From the sequence record NC_027330.1: 45,403 bases of DNA; one strand, written 5' to 3'. Source of the DNA: Escherichia phage ECBP5. The notes beneath the pieces are model-generated. The model saw only the letters and a program-made list of their open reading frames with translations, was not told the origin of the DNA and made no database searches. This document shows positions 6,531 to 45,403 of the stretch, piece by piece (the stretch's first letter is position 1; each line of letters begins with the position of its first letter). The translations under genes and the position numbers were made by a program.

Positions 6531-8543
6531 ATGTCTATTGTTATGAACCTACCTTGTCCTGCCTGTCAAAAGAATGGTGCAGATAGGCATGGTAAATATT
6601 TGATGGTATTCAGTGACGGAGGAAAACTCTGCTTACATACTCACAACCATGATAACCGTGAGCGCTACTATGAGCCACCAGATGGTAAAGACCCTGTGTT
6701 TGACCGTGAGATTGATGGCAAGGTTCAGTATTCTCCTGAGCAGTTCCGCAAGCTGGAATCAGATGGCAAGCTGAGTGATTCTTTTACTCGTCATCTGGCT
6801 ATGTCTGGTATGAGGATGAAAGACCGCTATGAGATTCTCACTGATGATGAGCGCACAGCTCTGGAGAATGAGTGGCGCATGGACATGGAGTGGTTTGATG
6901 GTCTTTCCTTTAAGTCACTAGCTGACCGTGGCATACACGGACTAATCGCCAAGCTTTATAATGTGCGAGTGGGTCATGATGAGTCTGGTAAAGTCGTCCG
7001 TCACTACTACCCTACTTATGACAGCCAGCTCAATCTGATTGGAGCTAAGTGTCGTACACTGCCTAAAGAATTTATGTTCGGGCATCTTGGTCGTCGCTTT
7101 GGTGATACTGCATTGTTCGGTATTCATACCCAGCAGGCTGTACTTGATAGTGGTACGTTCAAGAAAGGTAAGATGGGTAAGCTGCTGGTAGTTGGCGGTG
7201 AGTGCGATGCGATGGCAGCTCAGCAGATGCTTGTCAAGAGTCTCAATAAGCTTGAGCAGTTCAATGGGCTGAAGTCACTTGATGGCCTGCGTCTGGCTCA
7301 TGTGTGGTCGCCAACTAAAGGCGAGACAGCACTAGAGGAGATAGTAGCTAACCGTGAATACCTCAATCAGTTTGAGGATATTGTATGGGGCTTTGATAAT
7401 GACGATGTAGGCAACAAGCTTAACCTTGACTGCTCCCGCCTGTTCAGACAGAAGTCTAAGTTCTTTAACTACCCAGCTGGGTGCAAGGATGCCAATGACT
7501 GCCTGCTCAAAGGTAGAGAGAAAGAGTTTGTAGATGCATGGTGGCAGCCAGCAGAGGCTAGAGTTAAGGGCAAGCTGCGAGAGGCTGGTCACTACGCTAA
7601 GCGAGCTAAGCAAGCTGTAGAGATGGGCTTGTCATACTTCTGTGAAGCTCTCAACATGATTACATTTGGTATTCGCCTGCGTTACTTGTCTGTGTGGGGT
7701 GCGGGTACTGGTGTTGGTAAGACTGAGATTACTACTCAGCATATTACTAGCCTTATCAAGCAAGGTAAGCCAGTGGTAGCTATCTACCTTGAGAACAGTC
7801 CAGAAGAAGTCCTCAAGATGGTGGCAAGCCAGATGGCTAACAAGGACTTTATGAGTCCACCACTAGGTGAGGATGATGAGTACGATGCATCTAGGGATTA
7901 CACTCAAGAGGAATTAGACGCTACAATAGATGACTTAGTAGCAACTGGCTTGCTTATCATACCGGACCTTGAAGGTAGTAAGGATGTAAACGTAATAATG
8001 GAAGTCCTTGAAGATGCATTAGCATTAGGCTACCAGTATTATGTTATTGATAACCTGACAGCCTTTGAGCACTACGTAGATGGTAAGGTTCAAGTGGGTG
8101 TAGCTGCTATTGATGAGACTATGAAGCGCATCGGTACGTTTAAGGATGAGCATGACGTCAACATTATGCTTCTCACTCACTTAAGTAGACCAGAGAAAGG
8201 CCGTGACCCTCATGAGCTTGGTGGTGAAGTCTATATCACTGACTTACGTGGTGCAGGCTCTATCAGCTTTTGGGCTAATGGTGTATGGGGCATCGAGCGT
8301 AATACACAGGCTGAAGCTATCAGTGACAAGTGTACTACGCTGCTGCGTAACCTCAAGTCTCGTGGTGTAGGCCACAAGGTAGGCTCCACAGTTGTGCTCC
8401 GCAAGGACATTACAACTGGTGAGTTTGAGTACCTTGAAGGTGTTCATGAGCTGCCTCAGGTTGGCAGGAAGAAGAAGGAGAGCAAGCGTGATGCGCAAGC
8501 TCAACGGTTTATTGATGATGCAGATACTGACGGAGAGTTCTAA
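6531..8543 (+). CDS. Bifunctional DNA primase-helicase (T7 gp4-like)
   Basis: N-terminal Cys4 zinc ribbon CPACQ...CLHTHNH, TOPRIM-like acidic motifs, Walker A GAGTGVGKTE, acidic C-terminus ending in Phe (DTDGEF); start set at ATG 6531 (GGGAGG RBS) rather than GTG 6513. Confidence 0.92.
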   Translation: MSIVMNLPCPACQKNGADRHGKYLMVFSDGGKLCLHTHNHDNRERYYEPPDGKDPVFDREIDGKVQYSPEQFRKLESDGKLSDSFTRHLAMSGMRMKDRYEILTDDERTALENEWRMDMEWFDGLSFKSLADRGIHGLIAKLYNVRVGHDESGKVVRHYYPTYDSQLNLIGAKCRTLPKEFMFGHLGRRFGDTALFGIHTQQAVLDSGTFKKGKMGKLLVVGGECDAMAAQQMLVKSLNKLEQFNGLKSLDGLRLAHVWSPTKGETALEEIVANREYLNQFEDIVWGFDNDDVGNKLNLDCSRLFRQKSKFFNYPAGCKDANDCLLKGREKEFVDAWWQPAEARVKGKLREAGHYAKRAKQAVEMGLSYFCEALNMITFGIRLRYLSVWGAGTGVGKTEITTQHITSLIKQGKPVVAIYLENSPEEVLKMVASQMANKDFMSPPLGEDDEYDASRDYTQEELDATIDDLVATGLLIIPDLEGSKDVNVIMEVLEDALALGYQYYVIDNLTAFEHYVDGKVQVGVAAIDETMKRIGTFKDEHDVNIMLLTHLSRPEKGRDPHELGGEVYITDLRGAGSISFWANGVWGIERNTQAEAISDKCTTLLRNLKSRGVGHKVGSTVVLRKDITTGEFEYLEGVHELPQVGRKKKESKRDAQAQRFIDDADTDGEF

Positions 8544-10826: not shown

Positions 10827-13412
10827 ATGAATAACTTTCCGTCAATGTTTGCCAATAAAGCTGACCGCCCCTCTGGTAAGGGGCGCTTTCTTGTTGGTGA
10901 CCTAGAGGGTGTAGGGCTTGTCAGGGCTATTCGTAAGCCGTCTGACATTCACGTCATCACCCTGCAAGATTACTTTAGCGGTGACTACTGGATTTTCTTC
11001 GACCCTATTGAGAATCGAATCAACCCTAGTGAGCTGCAAATGGAAGGTGAGCAGGATGGCTACATTGAGGATGGTGTTCGTATGCTCATGGAGTCAGAAG
11101 CTTTCTGCTTCCAGAACGGGGTAGGCTTTGACTTGCATGTGTTTGAGAAATGCTTCCCGTGGTTCAAGTATAACTACTTGGAGTCACGAGCAGCTAGACC
11201 ACATGCTGACATCTTCCCGTTTAAGTTTATGGATACCATGCTGGTTAGCCAGCTGACTTATCCAGACCGTCCATTGCCACCACAAGCTTACGCCATCGGA
11301 GCAGGTAATACAGGTCCGCATAGTATTGCAGCTCATGGTATCCGCATGGGTCGCTATAAGCCTGACCATGAGGACTGGTCTACCCTTACTGATGCAATGA
11401 TTCACCGTAACGTGGAAGACGTTGCTATCGGTACTGACATGCTTAAGTGGCTCATGGAGGGTGACTGGGCTGAGCAGAAAGCTCGTGGCCTTAACAAGAC
11501 TACTGGCTGCGGCATCGAGACTGCTTATCAGATGGAGCAGCAAGTAGCGCTCATGATTAGCCGTCAGGAGCAGCGTGGGTTCCGCTTTGATATGGCACAG
11601 GCTTACAAAGACTTCTGTACCATTGATAAGGAGATGGAAGATACAGCAGCTGCTGTTGACCCACTTATCCCACTCAGGCTGGTCACTAAGCCTTATAAGT
11701 TTGCTGACCTTAAATCAAGGTATGATGCACTTCTTAAATCTGGTCTGCTTGAGAATAGTAATCAAGATGATTTAGCTGCTTGGGGTTTATTGAGGCCATG
11801 TGATGTTAAAGACTTCTTCAATGGCATCCATCAGACCATGAAAGCTATGGGCGATGAAGCTCGCATGGGTGACAAGGCTACTATGTGGTCTTTGACAACC
11901 AAGAACGGTGACTACGGCAAGCGCCTGCAAGGTTACTTCCCTGAGATGCGGGGTAACATCAATGATACTCATGACCCTCTTGTAGCTGGTGCATTCACTC
12001 CAATTAGCTTTGAGCATATAGGATTGGGTAACCTTGACTACATCAAAGAGAAGGTGCTGTATCCGCTGGGCTGGCGTGGTGTTAACTTGTCTGACTCTGA
12101 GCAAGAGTGGTATGACGAGCATGGCACAACACGCTATCCGTGGGCTGGTAAGATTGATGATGACTCGCTTGAGCTGTGGAAGAAGAAGCAGGAAGTGCCA
12201 GAGTGGGCGCAGCAGGTTGTTAACTACTACATCTTACGCTCACGTCGCTCAGTTATCCTGAACCGTGGCGACCTTGACCACTTCCTTGAGAAGGGTCAGT
12301 GGCCTAAGCAGAAGAATGGGCGTCATGAATGTCGTGGCCTGCTGGCAGTAGCTTACTGCAAAGAGCATGACATGATGGCTATGGAATACTTTGCTAAGTT
12401 CCGTGAGTGGCCTACATCTGAGGATGAGGACTGGCGTGTACCAGCAGCGGCTTTCAGCATTGGTACTAACACGTTCCGTATGCGTCATCGCTTTGTGGTT
12501 AACATACCTGCTCGTGGGCTGTGGCCTCTGCGTCACCTGTTCATTGCATCCAAGGGTAAGCTTATCTTAGGCTGTGATGGGGCTGGACTTGAGCTGCGTA
12601 TGCTTAGTCACTTTATGAATGACCCTGAGTATCAGGACATCATTCTCACTGGTGACATTCATACACACAACCAGCTCAAAGCAGGCTTGCCTACTCGTGA
12701 TATGGCTAAGACATTCATCTATGCATTCCTGTATGGCTCAGGGATTGATGGCCTAGCTCGCTTGGCTGGCATTAGCTTTAGTGAGATGGAGCAGTGTATT
12801 GCTCGCTTCAAGGCAGAGCTACCTGCACTTGCTAAGCTCATTGAGCGTGTGGAAAATGCTGGTCGCAAGTTCGGATACCTGCAAGCTATTGATGGTAGAT
12901 GGGGTCGTATCCGTCGTAAGAATGGTAAGCCACTGCTGCACACTGCACTTAACGTATTGCTTCAGATGACAGGCTCTCTGGTCATGAAGTATGGTGAGTG
13001 CATCGCTGAGACTCAGATGATTGAGGAAGGAGTTGCATTAGATGATAAAGGCTATCCAGCTTTCGTGGCTAACGTACACGATGAAGTCCAGATGGAAGTC
13101 TCTGAAGATGAAGTTGATGTTATGGACTACACGTTGCCATATACACTTGATGGATTCGAGAATGAGAAGAAAGCTATCAAGGCAGTCTTTGATGTTGAAG
13201 AGAAGCGAGCGCACACAGATGATAGTGGGCGTAAGTGGTCAGCAGCTATCAAGGTTTCTGCTGCTGATGGTACTATCCATTGTCGCAGGTACTATCATCG
13301 AGCTGGTCACATCCTTATGGATGCTTTCGAGGCTGCTGGTGTTAAGTTCAACATGAGATGCCCACTTGCTGGTGAATATAAGATAGGTCGTAACTGGCAC
13401 GATACTCACTAG
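10827..13412 (+). CDS. DNA polymerase, family A, with 3'-5' exonuclease domain
   Basis: Exo I-like VGDLEG; motif A DGAGLELR; motif B RDMAKTFIYAFLYG; motif C VHDE; 861 aa. Confidence 0.93.
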   Translation: MNNFPSMFANKADRPSGKGRFLVGDLEGVGLVRAIRKPSDIHVITLQDYFSGDYWIFFDPIENRINPSELQMEGEQDGYIEDGVRMLMESEAFCFQNGVGFDLHVFEKCFPWFKYNYLESRAARPHADIFPFKFMDTMLVSQLTYPDRPLPPQAYAIGAGNTGPHSIAAHGIRMGRYKPDHEDWSTLTDAMIHRNVEDVAIGTDMLKWLMEGDWAEQKARGLNKTTGCGIETAYQMEQQVALMISRQEQRGFRFDMAQAYKDFCTIDKEMEDTAAAVDPLIPLRLVTKPYKFADLKSRYDALLKSGLLENSNQDDLAAWGLLRPCDVKDFFNGIHQTMKAMGDEARMGDKATMWSLTTKNGDYGKRLQGYFPEMRGNINDTHDPLVAGAFTPISFEHIGLGNLDYIKEKVLYPLGWRGVNLSDSEQEWYDEHGTTRYPWAGKIDDDSLELWKKKQEVPEWAQQVVNYYILRSRRSVILNRGDLDHFLEKGQWPKQKNGRHECRGLLAVAYCKEHDMMAMEYFAKFREWPTSEDEDWRVPAAAFSIGTNTFRMRHRFVVNIPARGLWPLRHLFIASKGKLILGCDGAGLELRMLSHFMNDPEYQDIILTGDIHTHNQLKAGLPTRDMAKTFIYAFLYGSGIDGLARLAGISFSEMEQCIARFKAELPALAKLIERVENAGRKFGYLQAIDGRWGRIRRKNGKPLLHTALNVLLQMTGSLVMKYGECIAETQMIEEGVALDDKGYPAFVANVHDEVQMEVSEDEVDVMDYTLPYTLDGFENEKKAIKAVFDVEEKRAHTDDSGRKWSAAIKVSAADGTIHCRRYYHRAGHILMDAFEAAGVKFNMRCPLAGEYKIGRNWHDTH

Positions 13413-13433
13413 TATTAAGCACTACAATAGGTA
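13413..13433 (+). promoter_or_regulatory. Phage-RNAP promoter candidate
   Basis: TATTAAGCACTACAATAGGTA immediately after the DNAP stop. Confidence 0.5.
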
Positions 13434-13461
13434 TAACAAACTAACTAACCAAGGAGTTATT

Positions 13462-13716
13462 ATGTGGAATATTATCTTTGAAGTATTAGCATTCTTCTTC
13501 TGTACTGTGTGCTTCTACCGTATTGCCAAGTGTTATGGTGATAAATTCAAATCTGCACTAGCTAACATGAAGCGTACTGAAAAACGTGAGCATCGTTATA
13601 ATTTTGCTGATTATCTAGAATTTCGTCAGTATCGTCTTGCTGCTATTTTATTTAAGGTAGCCACTTACGTATGCCTGTACTTTGCCTTGCTTAACTTATC
13701 AGCATTACTTAACTAA
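13462..13716 (+). CDS. Small hydrophobic (membrane?) protein (84 aa)
   Basis: Two hydrophobic segments; followed by hairpin CTCCCTC-TACT-GAGGGAG plus TTT. Confidence 0.5.
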   Translation: MWNIIFEVLAFFFCTVCFYRIAKCYGDKFKSALANMKRTEKREHRYNFADYLEFRQYRLAAILFKVATYVCLYFALLNLSALLN

Positions 13717-13802
13717 CAGTTAGCTCCCTCTACTGAGGGAGTTTGCTAGAGGGCCTAGTGTGGTTCTCTATCAAGCTATCAACTAACGTTAGGAGAAACA
13801 CA

Positions 13803-14567
13803 ATGTCTTTAGATAACTTTGACTTCGGCGCAGACCTAGCAGAAGCGTCTGGTGTCAAACGAGTAAACCCTGAAGTTGGCTTGCACTTTGCTCGTTTGCG
13901 TAGTGTGATTCACTTAGGCTCAATTGCTGCCATGTACCGTGGAAAGCCAAAGCCACCAGTTAACAAGGCTGCTTTCATCTTTGAACTTAAGGGCGACCTT
14001 GATGAGATTGATGACCTGCACCCTGACAACGGTGAGCCATTGTGCATCGGCATCGGGGTTAACCTTACCAAAGGTGACAATGCCAAGCTCACAGAAGTTA
14101 TGGCAGCTCTCATCTCTAAGAAGGAGATGGAGGAAGGTACTGTCAAAGGTATGGATGACCTGATTGGTCGTGTCTGCCAGCTTGACCTGAAGGGCAGTGA
14201 TGCCAAGGGTGATGACGGTAAGCCTAAGTACGTTGACATCAAATCACTCAGCCCTGTGGCTAAGGCATTCGCCGCACAGATTCCTGAGCTGTCAGTAGCT
14301 GGCGTAGGTCACTGCCGCCTGTCTCAGCTGTCTATGGCTGCGATGGATGAGCTGAACGTGTTCCTCGATGTCCAAGAGGGCATCATGAAATCTGAGGAGT
14401 GGAAAGCAGGAACGCACCCAGCAATCGCTCTGGTAGAGGAAATCCGCAAGGAGCGTCCGAACTATGCCAAGGCTGAGAAGAAGTCTGACAAAGGCGCTGA
14501 CGAGCCACAGGGCGAGCAGGAGCCGTCTAAGCCAGCTGAGCAGATGAACACCGATGAGGAGTTCTAG
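13803..14567 (+). CDS. Putative ssDNA-binding protein (T7 gp2.5-like by size and tail); acidic C-terminus ending in Phe
   Basis: AGGAGAAAC RBS before ATG 13803; C-terminus ...EQEPSKPAEQMNTDEEF; N-terminal DNFDFGA motif shared with the exonuclease; SSB call is an inference. Confidence 0.6.
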   Translation: MSLDNFDFGADLAEASGVKRVNPEVGLHFARLRSVIHLGSIAAMYRGKPKPPVNKAAFIFELKGDLDEIDDLHPDNGEPLCIGIGVNLTKGDNAKLTEVMAALISKKEMEEGTVKGMDDLIGRVCQLDLKGSDAKGDDGKPKYVDIKSLSPVAKAFAAQIPELSVAGVGHCRLSQLSMAAMDELNVFLDVQEGIMKSEEWKAGTHPAIALVEEIRKERPNYAKAEKKSDKGADEPQGEQEPSKPAEQMNTDEEF

Positions 14568-14609
14568 TCTAGTACACTAGACTGAAGCCGTACTAGTTAG
14601 CTAGTACGG
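14564..14609. repeat. Two adjacent palindromes (family copies)
   Basis: TCTAGTCTAGTACACTAGACTGA and CCGTACTAGTTAGCTAGTACGG. Confidence 0.7.
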
Positions 14610-14610
14610 T

Positions 14611-14633
14611 ATTAGGCACTACAATAGGAATAG
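14611..14633 (+). promoter_or_regulatory. Phage-RNAP promoter candidate (consensus copy)
   Basis: ATTAGGCACTACAATAGGAATAG. Confidence 0.6.
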
Positions 14634-14750
14634 AATGCTCAACTTATGCATCCCTGTATCTGGCGGTCGCTACAAAGGATACAGGTTGCCTATAGGCTGT
14701 AATGGTGTCCAAAGCCAACGGCTTGGGTGGTGCATAAGCATGAGCATTCT
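14634..14750 (+). other. Structured element between tandem promoters (nested inverted repeats); candidate small RNA or replication origin
   Basis: Outer inverted repeat ATGCTCAACTTATGCA / TGCATAAGCATGAGCAT enclosing hairpins CCTGTATC..GATACAGG and CCAAGCC..GGCTTGG; no ORF. Confidence 0.35.
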
Positions 14751-14755
14751 TAACC

Positions 14756-14779
14756 TATTAAGCACTACAATAGGAATAG
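14756..14779 (+). promoter_or_regulatory. Phage-RNAP promoter candidate
   Basis: CTATTAAGCACTACAATAGGAATAG. Confidence 0.55.
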
Positions 14780-14814
14780 TAGAATAGCCACACCGTGTGT
14801 GCTCCCTTCTCAAC

Positions 14815-14838
14815 CTATTAAGCACTAAATAGATATAG
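14815..14838 (+). promoter_or_regulatory. Promoter-like repeat with 2-bp deletion in the core (possibly weak or inactive)
   Basis: CTATTAAGCACTAAATAGATATAG; about 35-bp duplication of the preceding promoter block. Confidence 0.35.
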
Positions 14839-14875
14839 TGAATATCTCTTTCAAACTTTATGAGGAATTAATATT

Positions 14876-15235
14876 ATGGCATTTGTAATCAAATCTGATG
14901 TATCCAGTCGTATCGTAGCTGGCTCTTTCAAAAAGTCTGAGTTCTTCTATGTAGCTGATGAAGCTACTGGTGAGCTGGTTGGTAAGAAGTCTCACGACAT
15001 TCGTGAAGAAGCTGAACTGGAGCTGGCTGGTCTGGCAGGTCTGGAAGCTGGTCTGGAGTTCGCTAAGGCTCAGTTCCCTAAACTGTCCACTAAAGCTCAG
15101 GTTGGCAAAGCCAACGTAATCTCCGAGTATCTGGCTTGGGAAGCAGCTGGTAAGCCAGTTAAGTCTGTTGAAGAAGCAGACTCTGAAGAAGTACCGGAAG
15201 CTCCAGAAGCTGCCGCAGAAGACGAAACATTCTAA
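14876..15235 (+). CDS. Acidic 119-aa protein with SSB-like acidic C-terminal tail ending in Phe; probably highly expressed
   Basis: Preceded by three promoter-like motifs and followed by a strong terminator; net negative charge; C-terminus EAPEAAAEDETF. Confidence 0.75.
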   Translation: MAFVIKSDVSSRIVAGSFKKSEFFYVADEATGELVGKKSHDIREEAELELAGLAGLEAGLEFAKAQFPKLSTKAQVGKANVISEYLAWEAAGKPVKSVEEADSEEVPEAPEAAAEDETF

Positions 15236-15241
15236 TAAACT

Positions 15242-15279
15242 GCCCCATTGGTCAATTCGACCTTTGGGGCTTATTTTTG
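15242..15279 (+). terminator. Rho-independent terminator
   Basis: GCCCCATTGGTCAATTCGACCTTTGGGGC hairpin followed by TTATTTTTG. Confidence 0.65.
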
Positions 15280-15290
15280 TTGGAGGGTTT

Positions 15291-15413
15291 ATGCCTGTTT
15301 TCAAAAGGGTTTGTATGCTGTGTGGTACAGCGTTTTCTCCGGTTAAGAAAAGTCCATTCCTTTGCATAAGGTGTTACAGGAGTTGTGTTAAAGAGAGGGC
15401 TACTAATGTTTGA
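15291..15413 (+). CDS. Small zinc-ribbon-like protein (40 aa)
   Basis: GGAGGG RBS 5 nt upstream; CxxC...CxxC (CMLCG...CIRCY); stop overlaps the exonuclease start; not in ORF track. Confidence 0.4.
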   Translation: MPVFKRVCMLCGTAFSPVKKSPFLCIRCYRSCVKERATNV

Positions 15414-16491
15414 TAACTTCGACTTTGGGGCTGAGGTAACTGAACGTGTAAGCCCTGTAAAGCTGTGGCCTACTGAGGGTAGTGTGGTTGGCTTAGTAGA
15501 TGCTGACCTGTTGCCATATAACATTGCTTATGGCCTTGACCCGCTGAAGGTATTGCGAGCACAGAACAGAGTAGAGTCAGGTGACTGCTCCAGTATTAGC
15601 GAGACACCAGAGTTTATTGATGCTGCTGAGTCTATGGCTACCCGCATGAACAACTGGCTTGAGGAAGCTGGCTGTGATGCTGCCATTCCATATATGACGA
15701 AATCAGATAGCAACTTCAGGCTTGATGTAGCTTTCTCCAGACCGTACAAAGGTCAGCGTAAGAAGGAGAAGCCACCATTCTTCTATGAGTTGCGTGACTT
15801 CCTTATCAGCCACATGGGTGCTGTGATGTCAGATGGTGAGGAGGCTGATGACCTTATCTCTATGGAGGCTGAGCGTCGCAACAAGCTGCTTGAGGAACAG
15901 GGCATTGTATTAGGCTCACCTACTCATAAAGAGTTCTGTGACTTTGTTATCATCTCATCTGACAAGGATAGCCGCATCACAGCTGGCAGACACTATGACC
16001 CTTATCACATGAAGCTCACCTTTGGTACACCTGTTGGTGAGCTTGAGCCTGTTTATAAAGACGGGAAGATTAAGACTATCAAGGGTAGCGGCTTGCGCTT
16101 CTTTTATGCTCAGCTTCTAATGGGCGACCAGATTGATAATTACACTGGTATCCCTCGCTACAGGTTGCAGAAGGTCTACGAGCTGCTTGGTCAGCTTAAG
16201 ACAGAGCAAGAGCTTTATTATGCTGTACTTGAAGCTTATAAAGATAAGTATGGCAAGGGTATGGTGGTGGAAAACTACCGTGGAACTAAGAAGTTCTATG
16301 ATGACTACATGGATGACTTTGGAGTACCGCCACCTGATTATGAACTTTGGAAAGGCAAGAAAGCTTTCCTCACACCTTATCAGCTGATGGTAGAGCAAGG
16401 GAGACTTGCGTACATGCAGAAGTTTAAGGGTGACATCTGGAGAGCTAATTGCAAGCTTCCATCAGGTGGAGACTTGAGCGCATGGAGTTAA
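15406..16491 (+). CDS. 5'-3' exonuclease (T7 gp6-like, FEN family)
   Basis: VGLVDADLLPY, IISSDKDSRI and GDQIDNYTGIP parallel T7 gp6 segments; start at ATG 15406 (AGAGAGG RBS). Confidence 0.88.
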   Translation: MFDNFDFGAEVTERVSPVKLWPTEGSVVGLVDADLLPYNIAYGLDPLKVLRAQNRVESGDCSSISETPEFIDAAESMATRMNNWLEEAGCDAAIPYMTKSDSNFRLDVAFSRPYKGQRKKEKPPFFYELRDFLISHMGAVMSDGEEADDLISMEAERRNKLLEEQGIVLGSPTHKEFCDFVIISSDKDSRITAGRHYDPYHMKLTFGTPVGELEPVYKDGKIKTIKGSGLRFFYAQLLMGDQIDNYTGIPRYRLQKVYELLGQLKTEQELYYAVLEAYKDKYGKGMVVENYRGTKKFYDDYMDDFGVPPPDYELWKGKKAFLTPYQLMVEQGRLAYMQKFKGDIWRANCKLPSGGDLSAWS

Positions 16492-16889
16492 AGAAAACTA
16501 CTAAAGCTGATTTAGTTTGGATTAAGAAAGAGCTGCTGGAGAAGCAGCGTTACCGTTGCCCTATTACTGGTAGAGACTTACGGACAATGAAGCCAGCTAA
16601 CTTATGTGTTGACCACTGTCACACATCTGGTGTTATTAGAGCTGTGCTGCCAAAGGGTATCAATGGACTTGAAGGAAAGATTAAAACACTGATGCAACGG
16701 TTTGGTGGCTTTGAGGCCACTGATGTAGTAGGACAGGCCAAAGCCTTATATGCACTAGCAGACTTCATCCTTTTACACAGAGTGCCACAGACACCTTATC
16801 TGCATCATACACACCTGTCACCAGCAGAGCAGAGAGCCAAGCGTAATGCTCAGGCTCGTAAGCGGTATGCTTTGAAGAAGAAGGAGTAA
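16482..16889 (+). CDS. Endonuclease VII-like Holliday-junction resolvase
   Basis: CPITG...CVDHCHTSG zinc/His-Me finger motif; GGTGGAG RBS before ATG 16482. Confidence 0.7.
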   Translation: MELKKTTKADLVWIKKELLEKQRYRCPITGRDLRTMKPANLCVDHCHTSGVIRAVLPKGINGLEGKIKTLMQRFGGFEATDVVGQAKALYALADFILLHRVPQTPYLHHTHLSPAEQRAKRNAQARKRYALKKKE

Positions 16890-18013
16890 TGATGACTAAG
16901 ATGACTGAGAAGCAGCTTAAGGAGTGCCTTGTAGCTAAGATGACAACCAGTGAGATTGCTGAGAAGTTTGGCTTATCTCACAGGGCTGTTCAAATTCGCA
17001 AGGCAGCTTTAGCTAAGAAAGGCTACAGCCCTGAGCATGACATGGTGCATCAGGTTCCTGAGGGCTTCTTGCTTAAGGGTCAGTCAACCTTATATGGTAA
17101 GGATGGGGATGTTAAGCTGACTTGGGTTAAGTCATCTATTGACCGTGACAAGCAGCTTGAGCTACTGCGTGAGTTCATTGCTGGCATGGGTGATGACCTT
17201 CCTCGTGAGCTTCCAGTTACCTGTGGTGGTGTAGGTAGTGATGACCTGTTAAACCAGTTCACTATCACTGACTATCACTTAGGTATGCTGGCATGGGATG
17301 AGGAGTCTGGTGACAATTGGGATATGAAGATTGCAACTGACCTAATCCTCAAGTGGTTCCAAGAGGCTATCCGCTGTAGTCCTATGGCTAAGACAGCTGT
17401 GCTGGCTCAGCTTGGTGACTTCTTGCATTGGGATGGGCTGGATGCAGTTACCCCAAGTAGCGGTCATGTACTTGATGCGGACACACGCTTCCAGAAGCTG
17501 GCTCGTGCTGCCATCTACATCACAAGAGCTGTGATTAAGATGCTGCTTGAGAAGCATGAGAAAGTTCATGTTGTCTTTGCAGAGGGTAATCATGATATGG
17601 CTAGCTCAATCTGGATGCGTGAGTTCCTTACAGTGATGTATGAGGATGAACCTCGTATTACCATTGACCAGAGTCCAGACCCTTATTATTGCTATGTGCA
17701 TGGTGATACTACGTTGTTCTACCATCACGGCCATAAGAAGAAGATGGAGCAGTTGTCTGATGTGTTCGCTGCTAAGTTCCGTAGTGAGTGGGGTGCTAGT
17801 AAATATTCCTATGCTCACGTAGGTCACTTGCATCATCACAAAGTGATTGAAAGCCCACTGATGAAGGTAGAGCAGCATCAGACTCTGGCAGCTAAGGATG
17901 CTTATGCAAGCCGTGGTGGTTGGCTTAGCAAGCGAGCTGCTACTGTAATCACTTACCATAAGAAGTTTGGGGAAGTATGTAGGGCTACCATCACACCAGA
18001 GATGGTAAGTTAG
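16889..18013 (+). CDS. Calcineurin-like metallophosphoesterase with N-terminal HTH-like segment
   Basis: Metallophosphoesterase motif series DYH, GDFLHWD, GNHD, HHGH, GHLHHH; N-terminal TSEIAEKFGLSHRAVQIRKAALAKKG. Confidence 0.75.
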   Translation: MMTKMTEKQLKECLVAKMTTSEIAEKFGLSHRAVQIRKAALAKKGYSPEHDMVHQVPEGFLLKGQSTLYGKDGDVKLTWVKSSIDRDKQLELLREFIAGMGDDLPRELPVTCGGVGSDDLLNQFTITDYHLGMLAWDEESGDNWDMKIATDLILKWFQEAIRCSPMAKTAVLAQLGDFLHWDGLDAVTPSSGHVLDADTRFQKLARAAIYITRAVIKMLLEKHEKVHVVFAEGNHDMASSIWMREFLTVMYEDEPRITIDQSPDPYYCYVHGDTTLFYHHGHKKKMEQLSDVFAAKFRSEWGASKYSYAHVGHLHHHKVIESPLMKVEQHQTLAAKDAYASRGGWLSKRAATVITYHKKFGEVCRATITPEMVS

Positions 18014-45192: not shown

Positions 45193-45403
45193 ATGAGCAG
45201 GGAATTATCTTTAAGGTTTAATGAATCTAATAAGCGCATGGATGCATTGCTAAGTGCAATGAATAGGGCTAACCCTCTATCAGTAGAGTATGAGGAGCTT
45301 AGTAAAATGGCTCACAGCGAGTTGCAAACAATGCAAGCTATTAACAACAGCTCATTGCAACAACTAGAAATGCACTGGACAACCTCAGGTGACTTTAGCC
45401 ACC
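45193..45403 (+). CDS. Early hypothetical protein, 5' portion (continues at 1..234 across the wrap-around)
   Basis: ATG at 45193 one base after the upstream stop; open to the window end. Confidence 0.5.
   Translation, partial: MSRELSLRFNESNKRMDALLSAMNRANPLSVEYEELSKMAHSELQTMQAINNSSLQQLEMHWTTSGDFSH
45196..45403. repeat. Exact duplicate of 1-208
   Basis: Identical to window start. Confidence 0.9.

Follow-up and report, generated by a model that had tools for sequence, protein, structure and literature searches.

A shared N-terminal peptide, a candidate docking motif, in a putative single-stranded DNA-binding protein and a FEN-family exonuclease of Escherichia phage ECBP5

Introduction

Docking peptides shared between proteins are a known principle, as in the acidic tails of phage T7, the C-terminal tip of the bacterial SSB (single-stranded DNA-binding protein) and the PCNA-interacting peptide (PIP) boxes. 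In phage T4, the N-terminal peptide of gp32 gives cooperativity, and its removal unmasks a high affinity for RNase H, a nuclease of the flap endonuclease (FEN) family that docks, through an N-terminal peptide of its own, on the gp45 clamp (PMC3012046). PrgE's N-terminal tail binds the neighboring monomer on DNA (PMC11137577). In T7, gp2.5 specifically stimulates gp6, and the nature of the gp2.5-gp6 and gp5-gp6 contacts is a question raised in the T7 literature itself (PMC4124056). How the flap exonuclease of a T7-type replisome reaches the lagging strand without a sliding clamp is a question for which a handle is offered by a peptide found at the N-termini of a 254-residue putative SSB and a 361-residue FEN-family exonuclease of Escherichia phage ECBP5 (NC_027330.1; the whole 45,403-nucleotide record is called the window below).

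A sequence-only reading of the window had drawn attention to this peptide, suggesting either a common docking partner or a recombination that duplicated a gene 5' end. In the searchable literature, the motif, its N-terminal position, the SSB-FEN pairing and the OB-fold SSB family carrying the motif were not found described, and searches on the motif strings and on the SP6-group SSB or replisome returned nothing relevant.

Results

The same peptide opens two proteins

Direct reading of both open reading frames (ORFs) confirmed that the same motif stands at the two N-termini: the SSB begins MSLDNFDFGADL (longer read, MSLDNFDFGADLAEA) and the exonuclease begins MFDNFDFGAEV (longer read, MFDNFDFGAEVTER). 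The SSB ORF starts at ATG 13803, with AGGAG 8 nt upstream, and the exonuclease at ATG 15406, with a GAGG-type site upstream; the program-made ORF list puts the exonuclease start at GTG 15385, and every ortholog starts at the ATG. A six-frame search of the whole genome found no further DNFDFG, FDFG or [DE]NF[DE]F beyond these two copies. When the first 20 residues of each of the 58 window proteins were compared, the longest exact word in common had seven residues, while in 300 composition-matched random sets the shared word never exceeded six residues and reached six in only three sets.

The underlying DNA is also similar, as had been claimed: the strings quoted earlier are correct, and 19 of 23 bases are the same in the two genes. 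This identity is what would favor a nucleotide-level element (for translation initiation, or an operator) or a recent gene conversion, with chance as a further explanation for the match. All four base differences, however, are synonymous third positions, and over 12 genomes identical codons were used at 35 of 76 shared-residue positions, against 35.6 expected from codon usage, indicating that selection acts on the protein and that the duplication was not recent. Further, the motif begins 2-18 codons after the ATG among homologs, and Rfam gave no match within 14500-15450. The codon analysis and the empty Rfam scan rule out an explanation at the RNA level or by gene conversion; the chance expectation is well below 1%, and conservation in more than 150 homologs excludes chance. 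We therefore regard this whole class of explanations as highly improbable.

The 254-residue protein is a putative OB-fold SSB

We accept the 254-residue protein as a putative SSB of the oligonucleotide/oligosaccharide-binding (OB) fold, outside the gp2.5 family, because of its predicted fold, its tail and the position of its gene, between those of the polymerase and the exonuclease. An AlphaFold monomer, built on a 39-sequence alignment, was confident over residues 20-225 (predicted local distance difference test, pLDDT, about 90) and displayed an OB-fold core. The C-terminal tail is acidic, predicted to be disordered and closed by an aromatic tip, ...NTDEEF, which resembles the ...EDGDF of T7 gp2.5. 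The closest solved structure was PrgE of plasmid pCF10 (PDB 8S4S), at 13% sequence identity. A Foldseek search of viral models returned uncharacterized phage proteins, among them BFVD models that bear the name DUF669 (E 3.5e-6 to 5e-5). DUF669 has been predicted to be a divergent OB-fold SSB (Kazlauskas et al. 2016, PMC4889955), and the ECBP5 protein is consistent with how that family is described, with its divergent OB fold, its acidic tail and the absence of a further SSB from the genome; no other SSB candidate was seen among the listed window ORFs, most of which were not scanned against any SSB model.

Sequence comparison gave no such link. Pfam had no match for the protein or for 10 distant members of its family, no PDB chain could be connected with it by sequence, and its hhalign probability against T7 gp2.5 was 0.15%. 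The earlier label "SSB-like" is thus upheld by fold and family features, and not by homology to T7 gp2.5. An exhaustive profile search placed 1272 representative clusters in the SSB family (PHROG 862), whose orthologs are annotated "hypothetical" in the listed GenBank records, and many distant members end in DDDIPF, DEVPF or DEIPF, the bacterial-SSB tip.

The end peptides of this family vary among its distant members (P0183, P0213, P0220, P0232, P0255, P0259 and others, and locus L024 932-1660). C-termini include DDDIPF/DEVPF (the host-SSB tip), ..LAALGL in phiKMV-like members and EEF/EEY in SP6-like ones, and the phiKMV-like proteins have a helix-like N-terminus with ..EDQTE.. in place of the FDFG arm. 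Judging from these sequences, the terminal peptides of the family, namely its EEF, DDDIPF and LAALGL tails and also its FDFG arm, may be swapped in the manner of modules.

The 361-residue protein is a FEN-family nuclease

Profile and fold place the 361-residue protein in the FEN family, and 5'-3' exonuclease activity is predicted for it. It matched PHROG 107 "exonuclease" at E 3e-62, whereas BLASTP against T7 gp6 gave a weak match (E 0.004). The protein itself had no Pfam match at E <= 0.01; its homologs carry PF01367/PF02739. Its modeled core (pLDDT above 90) has the FEN fold, PIN-like plus H3TH, and a Foldseek search with the fusion model described below returned E. coli ExoIX (3zda, E 4.7e-7), T4 RNase H (2ihn, E 3e-6) and T5 D15 (5hmm, E 2.5e-5), with E values for these three nucleases ranging from 5e-7 to 1e-4. 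The acidic residues D32, D34, E146, D148, D149, D186, D188, D241 and D244 are invariant in 28 sequences, and by analogy with the family they would form the two metal sites. One claim of the sequence-only reading did not survive: T7 gp6 is not without an N-terminal extension, since a 20-residue leader, MALLDLKQFYELREGCDDKG, precedes its first strand, and only this motif is absent from it.

The peptide is conserved in both families

Conservation of the motif in relatives, proposed earlier as a test, clearly held. In 32 SSB homologs (33-85% identity), only 18 alignment columns are invariant, F6, D7 and G9 among them, and A10 is nearly so. The pattern F-x-[FYML]-G lies 2-12 residues from the start in 117 of 120 listed exonuclease homologs, down to 35% identity, and the remaining three are N-terminally truncated; W21, G25, F5 and G8 are invariant in the exonuclease. 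Across the homologs the motif starts 2-18 residues after the Met. It is found in Molineuxvirinae (SP6, K1E, Era103, ZK1, POP72), in Colwellvirinae (Vc1, phi-A318, Achelous, CB5A, MJG) and in Gajwadongvirus with its metagenomic relatives, and in the whole genomes of ECBP5, SP6, Vc1 and phi-A318 it is present on these two proteins only. All 19 examined genomes that have either copy have both. Conversely, phiKMV (gp21, gp22), Rhizobium phage Palo and T7 have it on neither protein; reading the N-termini of phiKMV gp21/gp22 and of the Palo proteins, with no alignment or profile comparison run, revealed no alternative shared motif.

The similarity reaches the first strand of each core

The shared module reads F-D-[FY]-G-[AG]-[DE]-h-[AS]-E, then 5-7 variable residues, then [KR]-h-[WN]-P-x-x-G, and is followed by strand 1. 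The similarity thus spans about 25-30 residues in a single register, as far as the P-x-x-G turn, which in both proteins lies at residues 22-26, whereas strand 1 opens an OB fold in the SSB and a FEN fold in the exonuclease, which are unrelated cores. To compare the families we built profiles of the N-termini of 39 SSB-family and 45 exonuclease-family members, both alignments being anchored on the motif, and hhalign matched them with a probability of 97% (E 4e-11) over 33 gapless columns. Because of this anchoring, the comparison was repeated without the F-D-F-G-A core, and a weaker match in the same register persisted on P-x-x-G and the first strand, at E 3e-4 to 7e-4.

The module thus probably goes back, as far as these alignments can tell, to an ancient event in which a gene 5' end was duplicated, or transferred from one of the two genes to the other. 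As an account of origin, the duplicated-5'-end suggestion of the sequence-only reading is probably right for these 25-30 homologous residues, with the event an ancient rather than a recent one.

The two copies covary within genomes

An IMG/VR scan with the SSB alignment yielded four loci, too few for pairing, and the pairs of N-termini were taken instead from GenBank phage records and metagenome contigs, 19 genomes in all, including contigs L019, L021, L022, L024 and L026-L028. At position 5 of the motif, Molineuxvirinae and Gajwadong-like phages have A in both proteins (given as SSB/exonuclease, A/A), all five Colwellvirinae have G/G, L019 has V/I and L021 has V/T. In L028 the second aromatic residue is replaced in both proteins (T/A), and in L024 two residues are inserted before the Gly in both (FNYNSGLE / FDVFQGLD). 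The mean BLOSUM62 similarity of the paired 10-mers was 29.8 within genomes and 23.9 across genomes (permutation p <= 5e-5 for the 19 pairs; 3.5e-4 for 13 lineage representatives). As the paired changes are similar but not identical, a shared constraint is favored over gene conversion.

The classes of the motif follow phage lineage. YGG is common to the Colwellvirinae of Vibrio, Pseudomonas, Aeromonas and Marinomonas, and Gajwadong-like phages have [FY]GA both on Enterobacterales and on Ralstonia. That the classes track the phage and not the host points to a phage-encoded receptor, and it counts against a host hub protein, such as the beta sliding clamp, as the partner. FEN nucleases commonly bind clamps, as FEN1 does PCNA. 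An N-terminal clamp-binding peptide on a phage FEN has a precedent in T4 RNase H and gp45, no phage clamp was recognized among the 16 replication-module proteins scanned, and the motif has a loose resemblance to hydrophobic-acidic clamp ligands. The consensus of bacterial clamp-binding peptides, however, is QL[SD]LF or QLxLxL, and the motif departs from it in having no conserved Gln and a Gly or Ala at the final hydrophobic position; ahead of the first Phe, the residue varies (N, D, E, S, G, C, T, H, I). The PIP box, Qxx[LIM]xx[FY][FY], occurs in neither N-terminus, and an SSB has no known need for a clamp. A host receptor is, in our judgment, quite unlikely.

The peptide is predicted to be a disordered arm

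In the SSB monomer model, residues 1-16, which include the motif, and residues 226-254 had a pLDDT below 50; strand 1 begins at residue 26, so that the disordered N-terminal arm stands directly before the OB core. We also predicted a fusion, exonuclease-(GGGGS)8-SSB, from 28 full-length fused rows (12 pairs from sequenced loci, 8 from equal-length contigs and 8 rank-matched pseudo-pairs), reading out pLDDT and the predicted template modeling score (pTM). Here residues 1-12 of the exonuclease were below 50, as residues 1-19 and the C-tail of the SSB again were, with a pTM of 0.54. According to these models, both proteins have the peptide as a flexible arm that is not packed on their own core. 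It has the marks of a short linear motif: an island of conserved F, D and G within a segment predicted to be disordered, with flanks that vary and a distance to the chain end that is not fixed.

These models bear on the idea that the module acts in cis, with no common partner, either as a mimic of single-stranded DNA or gate on the DNA-binding surface of its own protein or in stability and turnover, and that both proteins have it because both inherited one 5'-end duplication. The 25-30 homologous residues, including a P-x-x-G turn that belongs to each folded core, would fit such a role, as would the known occupation of their own OB grooves by the acidic tails of T7 gp2.5 and E. coli SSB; the SSB and the exonuclease are both predicted to bind single-stranded DNA or flaps, and no docking in trans was predicted. 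AlphaFold, however, docked no arm in cis either, with pLDDT below 50 in both contexts, and one and the same peptide would have had to be retained by two unrelated folds, OB and FEN, whose surfaces differ. Moreover, unless both proteins are under one constraint, it is difficult to account for substitutions that run in parallel without being identical and for a two-residue insertion common to both copies, and we find a purely cis role unlikely.

In alignment A5, MAFFT placed stand-alone SSB rows onto the exonuclease N-terminus of fused rows, using the shared motif as its anchor, and this misplacement is a warning for the automated alignment or clustering of the two families.

Genome and gene context

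The window comprises the whole genome of a podophage, about 45.2 kb in length. The terminal repeat in Table 1, an exact copy, is either a direct repeat at the termini or the product of an overlap in assembling a circular or permuted genome. Over the tested region, Vibrio phage JSF38 and Klebsiella phages Roth32 and vB_Kp_Z1 share 95% identity with ECBP5, and Pectobacterium phage PP99 (Autographiviridae, genus Gajwadongvirus) shares 86%. The region of Roth32 homologous to window 13000-17000 (PQ657801.1 21113-24553; 96% identity) carries an annotated tRNA-Ser, whereas ARAGORN found no tRNA anywhere in the ECBP5 window; an insertion in Roth32 probably accounts for it.

Between the SSB and exonuclease genes lies a gene for a 119-residue protein that is kept there in most relatives and missing from contig L019. 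The N-terminal part of its product is small and looks folded, and the tail, ..EDETF, is acidic; the L026 and L027 versions are shorter and lack the terminal aromatic residue. Acidic-aromatic C-termini are found on four ECBP5 proteins: the primase-helicase (..DADTDGEF), a 228-residue nucleotidyltransferase-like protein (..DEDLDEIAW), the SSB (..NTDEEF) and the 119-residue protein (..AEDETF). This set looks like a second shared peptide system, similar to that of T7 gp2.5 and gp4 (..EDGDF, ..NDTDF), and the SSB and 119-residue tails covary across phages (..ATY/..AAY in MJG, ..AEY/..EEY in ZK1, ..EFGE/..FEG in Achelous).

The 16-mer TTA[AG]GCACTACAATAG occurs seven times on the + strand, against 0.19 copies expected by chance, and these sites are most likely promoters of the phage RNA polymerase. 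Two of them lie in the 308-bp gap between the SSB and 119-residue genes, suggesting that the SSB and the exonuclease are probably in separate transcription units. Another precedes a hydrophobic 84-residue ORF, between the polymerase and SSB genes, whose product looks like a small membrane protein within the replication module.

Table 1. Positions in the window of the two genes, their shared modules and the other features discussed
Feature	Coordinates	Strand	Description
Putative SSB gene, 254 aa	13803..14567	+	PHROG 862 "unknown function"; ortholog of SP6 gp18 / K1E gp16
SSB N-terminal module, residues 4-26	13812..13880	+	DNFDFGADLAE, Gly/Ala/Ser-rich linker, VKRVNPEVG into OB strand 1; DNFDFG coded at 13812-13829
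SSB FDFGA core	13818-13832	+	Inside candidate docking peptide
SSB acidic C-terminal tail, predicted disordered	14478..14564	+	Ends ...NTDEEF (codons 14541-14564); pLDDT <50 at residues 226-254; E252, E253, F254 conserved
Exonuclease gene, 361 aa, FEN-family, predicted 5'-3'	15406..16491	+	PHROG 107; SP6 gp21 ortholog, T7 gp6 distant relative
Exonuclease N-terminal module, residues 3-25	15412..15480	+	DNFDFGAEVTE, linker, VKLWPTEG into first FEN strand VVGLVDAD; DNFDFG coded at 15412-15429
Exonuclease FDFGA core	15418-15432	+	Inside candidate docking peptide
119-aa protein gene	14876-15235	+	PHROG 4429 unknown function; SP6 gp20 ortholog; ..AEDETF codons 15209-15232
Hydrophobic 84-aa ORF	13462-13716	+	PHROG 38394 unknown function
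Primase-helicase ORF	6531-8543		..DADTDGEF codons 8517-8540
DNA polymerase gene	10827-13412		SP6-type
Nucleotidyltransferase-like ORF, 228 aa	10129-10815		..DEDLDEIAW codons 10789-10812
TTA[AG]GCACTACAATAG copies	6155, 6337, 13415, 14612, 14758, 24010, 38285	+	16-mer matches; probable promoters
Terminal repeat, 208 bases	1-208 and 45196-45403		Exact copy

Discussion

We think it likely that the shared peptide is a trans-acting docking motif with a common partner. A co-evolving docking site predicts an island of conservation in a disordered segment, a variable distance from the Met and covariation between the two proteins, and this is the pattern observed; the docking suggestion of the sequence-only reading therefore gains from the behavior of the peptide as a short linear motif, and gains nothing from the fusion model, which docked neither copy. 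A single binding site on a phage protein, evolving along with the peptide, would then accept both copies.

Where that site lies is a more tentative matter. Our preference, reached largely by analogy and held with less than even confidence, is that the partner is the core of the SSB and that the exonuclease mimics the N-terminal arm of the SSB; a polymerase or helicase partner is nearly as likely. The preference follows from the precedents of the PrgE tail, of T4 gp32 and RNase H, and of T7 gp2.5 and gp6, and an SSB receptor also fits better than a general replisome hub because no other replication protein carries the motif. In this arrangement, SSB monomers would chain head-to-tail on single-stranded DNA through the F-D-F-G peptide, each arm holding the neighboring SSB while the DNA is coated, as in PrgE and T4 gp32. 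The single-strand/double-strand junction at the end of the SSB tract would adjoin the 5' end of the previous Okazaki fragment, or a resected end, and the copy of the arm on the exonuclease could dock there on the SSB-coated DNA, at the free acceptor site. Docking would set the exonuclease beside the 5' end that it is to trim, in Okazaki-fragment maturation and in recombination. That the exonuclease plugs the single unfilled acceptor at this junction, which would amount to a recruitment that reads polarity by peptide mimicry, is a possibility that we put forward with some doubt; if true, peptide mimicry would replace the sliding-clamp toolbelt in a large group of clamp-less phages of the T7 supergroup.

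Several observations weigh against an SSB receptor. The peptide is acidic, whereas the cooperativity arm of gp32 is basic and that of PrgE polar, and an acidic-aromatic peptide would, by analogy with the T7 C-terminal tails, be no less suited to a basic patch of the polymerase or the helicase. The covariation is equally expected with any other co-evolving phage protein as receptor, and the independent parallel events behind it are few, about five. Neither the N-terminal peptides nor the SSB C-tail docked in the fusion, and in the SSB monomer model the arm was left undocked as well, although these are weak negatives, coming from shallow alignments of 28-39 sequences without DNA or a multimer model.

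Much of this could be read in favor of a common receptor in the phage DNA polymerase or the primase-helicase, with the SSB and the flap exonuclease as clients of the enzyme that finishes Okazaki fragments. The acidic-aromatic character of the peptide recalls the C-terminal tails of T7 gp2.5 and gp4, which bind basic patches of T7 DNA polymerase (PMC4124056). An SP6-type polymerase and primase-helicase accompany the motif in every genome examined (L019, L025 and L028 included), and phiKMV-like phages, which lack the motif, have a polymerase too divergent to match; this co-occurrence is, however, confounded by phylogeny. The fusion docked the peptides on neither the SSB nor the exonuclease, and the N-terminal peptide of T4 RNase H binds the clamp of the polymerase. 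On the other hand, ECBP5 already has T7-like acidic C-tails on the helicase, the SSB and the 119-residue protein, and since these would by analogy serve the polymerase, a second peptide for it needs a second site. Other clients that might be looked for, ligase and endonuclease VII, do not carry the motif. We hold a polymerase or helicase receptor to be possible, if somewhat doubtful; were it true, the clamp-less replisome would gain a coupling of polymerase and nuclease that is achieved by fusion in Pol I and by PIP peptides with PCNA or gp45.

As a separate candidate, the acidic 119-residue protein was ruled out as an obligatory receptor, for the replication module of L019 is without it and both motifs persist.

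A 9-residue peptide on exactly the SSB and the exonuclease offers a concrete handle in a large sister group, which takes in SP6, K1E/K1-5, Era103, the Colwellvirinae of Vibrio and Pseudomonas and the Gajwadong-like phages of Klebsiella and Pectobacterium. A further outcome is a putative function, as OB-fold SSBs, for the proteins of PHROG 862 (SP6 gp18), a widespread "hypothetical" family. Therapy work directed at Klebsiella, E. coli K1 and Erwinia uses several of the phages in this group, which gives their replication contacts practical value.

Among known systems, the T7 tails are alike in being short, disordered, acidic peptides with an essential aromatic residue, which serve for docking and are found on two replication proteins of a replisome that has no clamp; those of gp2.5 and gp4 share one docking site on T7 DNA polymerase. 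The ECBP5 motif differs in being N-terminal and internal, without a free carboxylate, and in its fixed F-D-[FY]-G core; here the pair is SSB and exonuclease, not SSB and helicase, and the motif coexists with a C-tail system. Hub-client systems (the DDDIPF tip of SSB, the PIP box and QL[SD]LF) likewise put one motif on several proteins of DNA metabolism that meet at one site, but the ECBP5 motif matches neither consensus and has only two clients, one of them the SSB itself.

PrgE is, like the ECBP5 protein, an OB-fold protein, and it oligomerizes on DNA through its N-terminal tail, as the phage protein putatively does; it differs in its polar tail contacts and in having no F-D-F-G motif, its sequence identity is low, and no nuclease is known to copy its tail. 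T4 offers the parallel of an SSB whose N-terminal peptide (the gp32 B-domain) controls self-association and a FEN, RNase H, whose N-terminal peptide docks, and the strong binding of the FEN after removal of the gp32 N-terminus implies competition for one site (PMC3012046). The two T4 peptides are unrelated in sequence, the gp32 arm being basic and the PIP-like peptide of RNase H binding the gp45 clamp, whereas in ECBP5 both peptides have the same, acidic sequence, in a replication module whose 16 scanned proteins include no recognized clamp.

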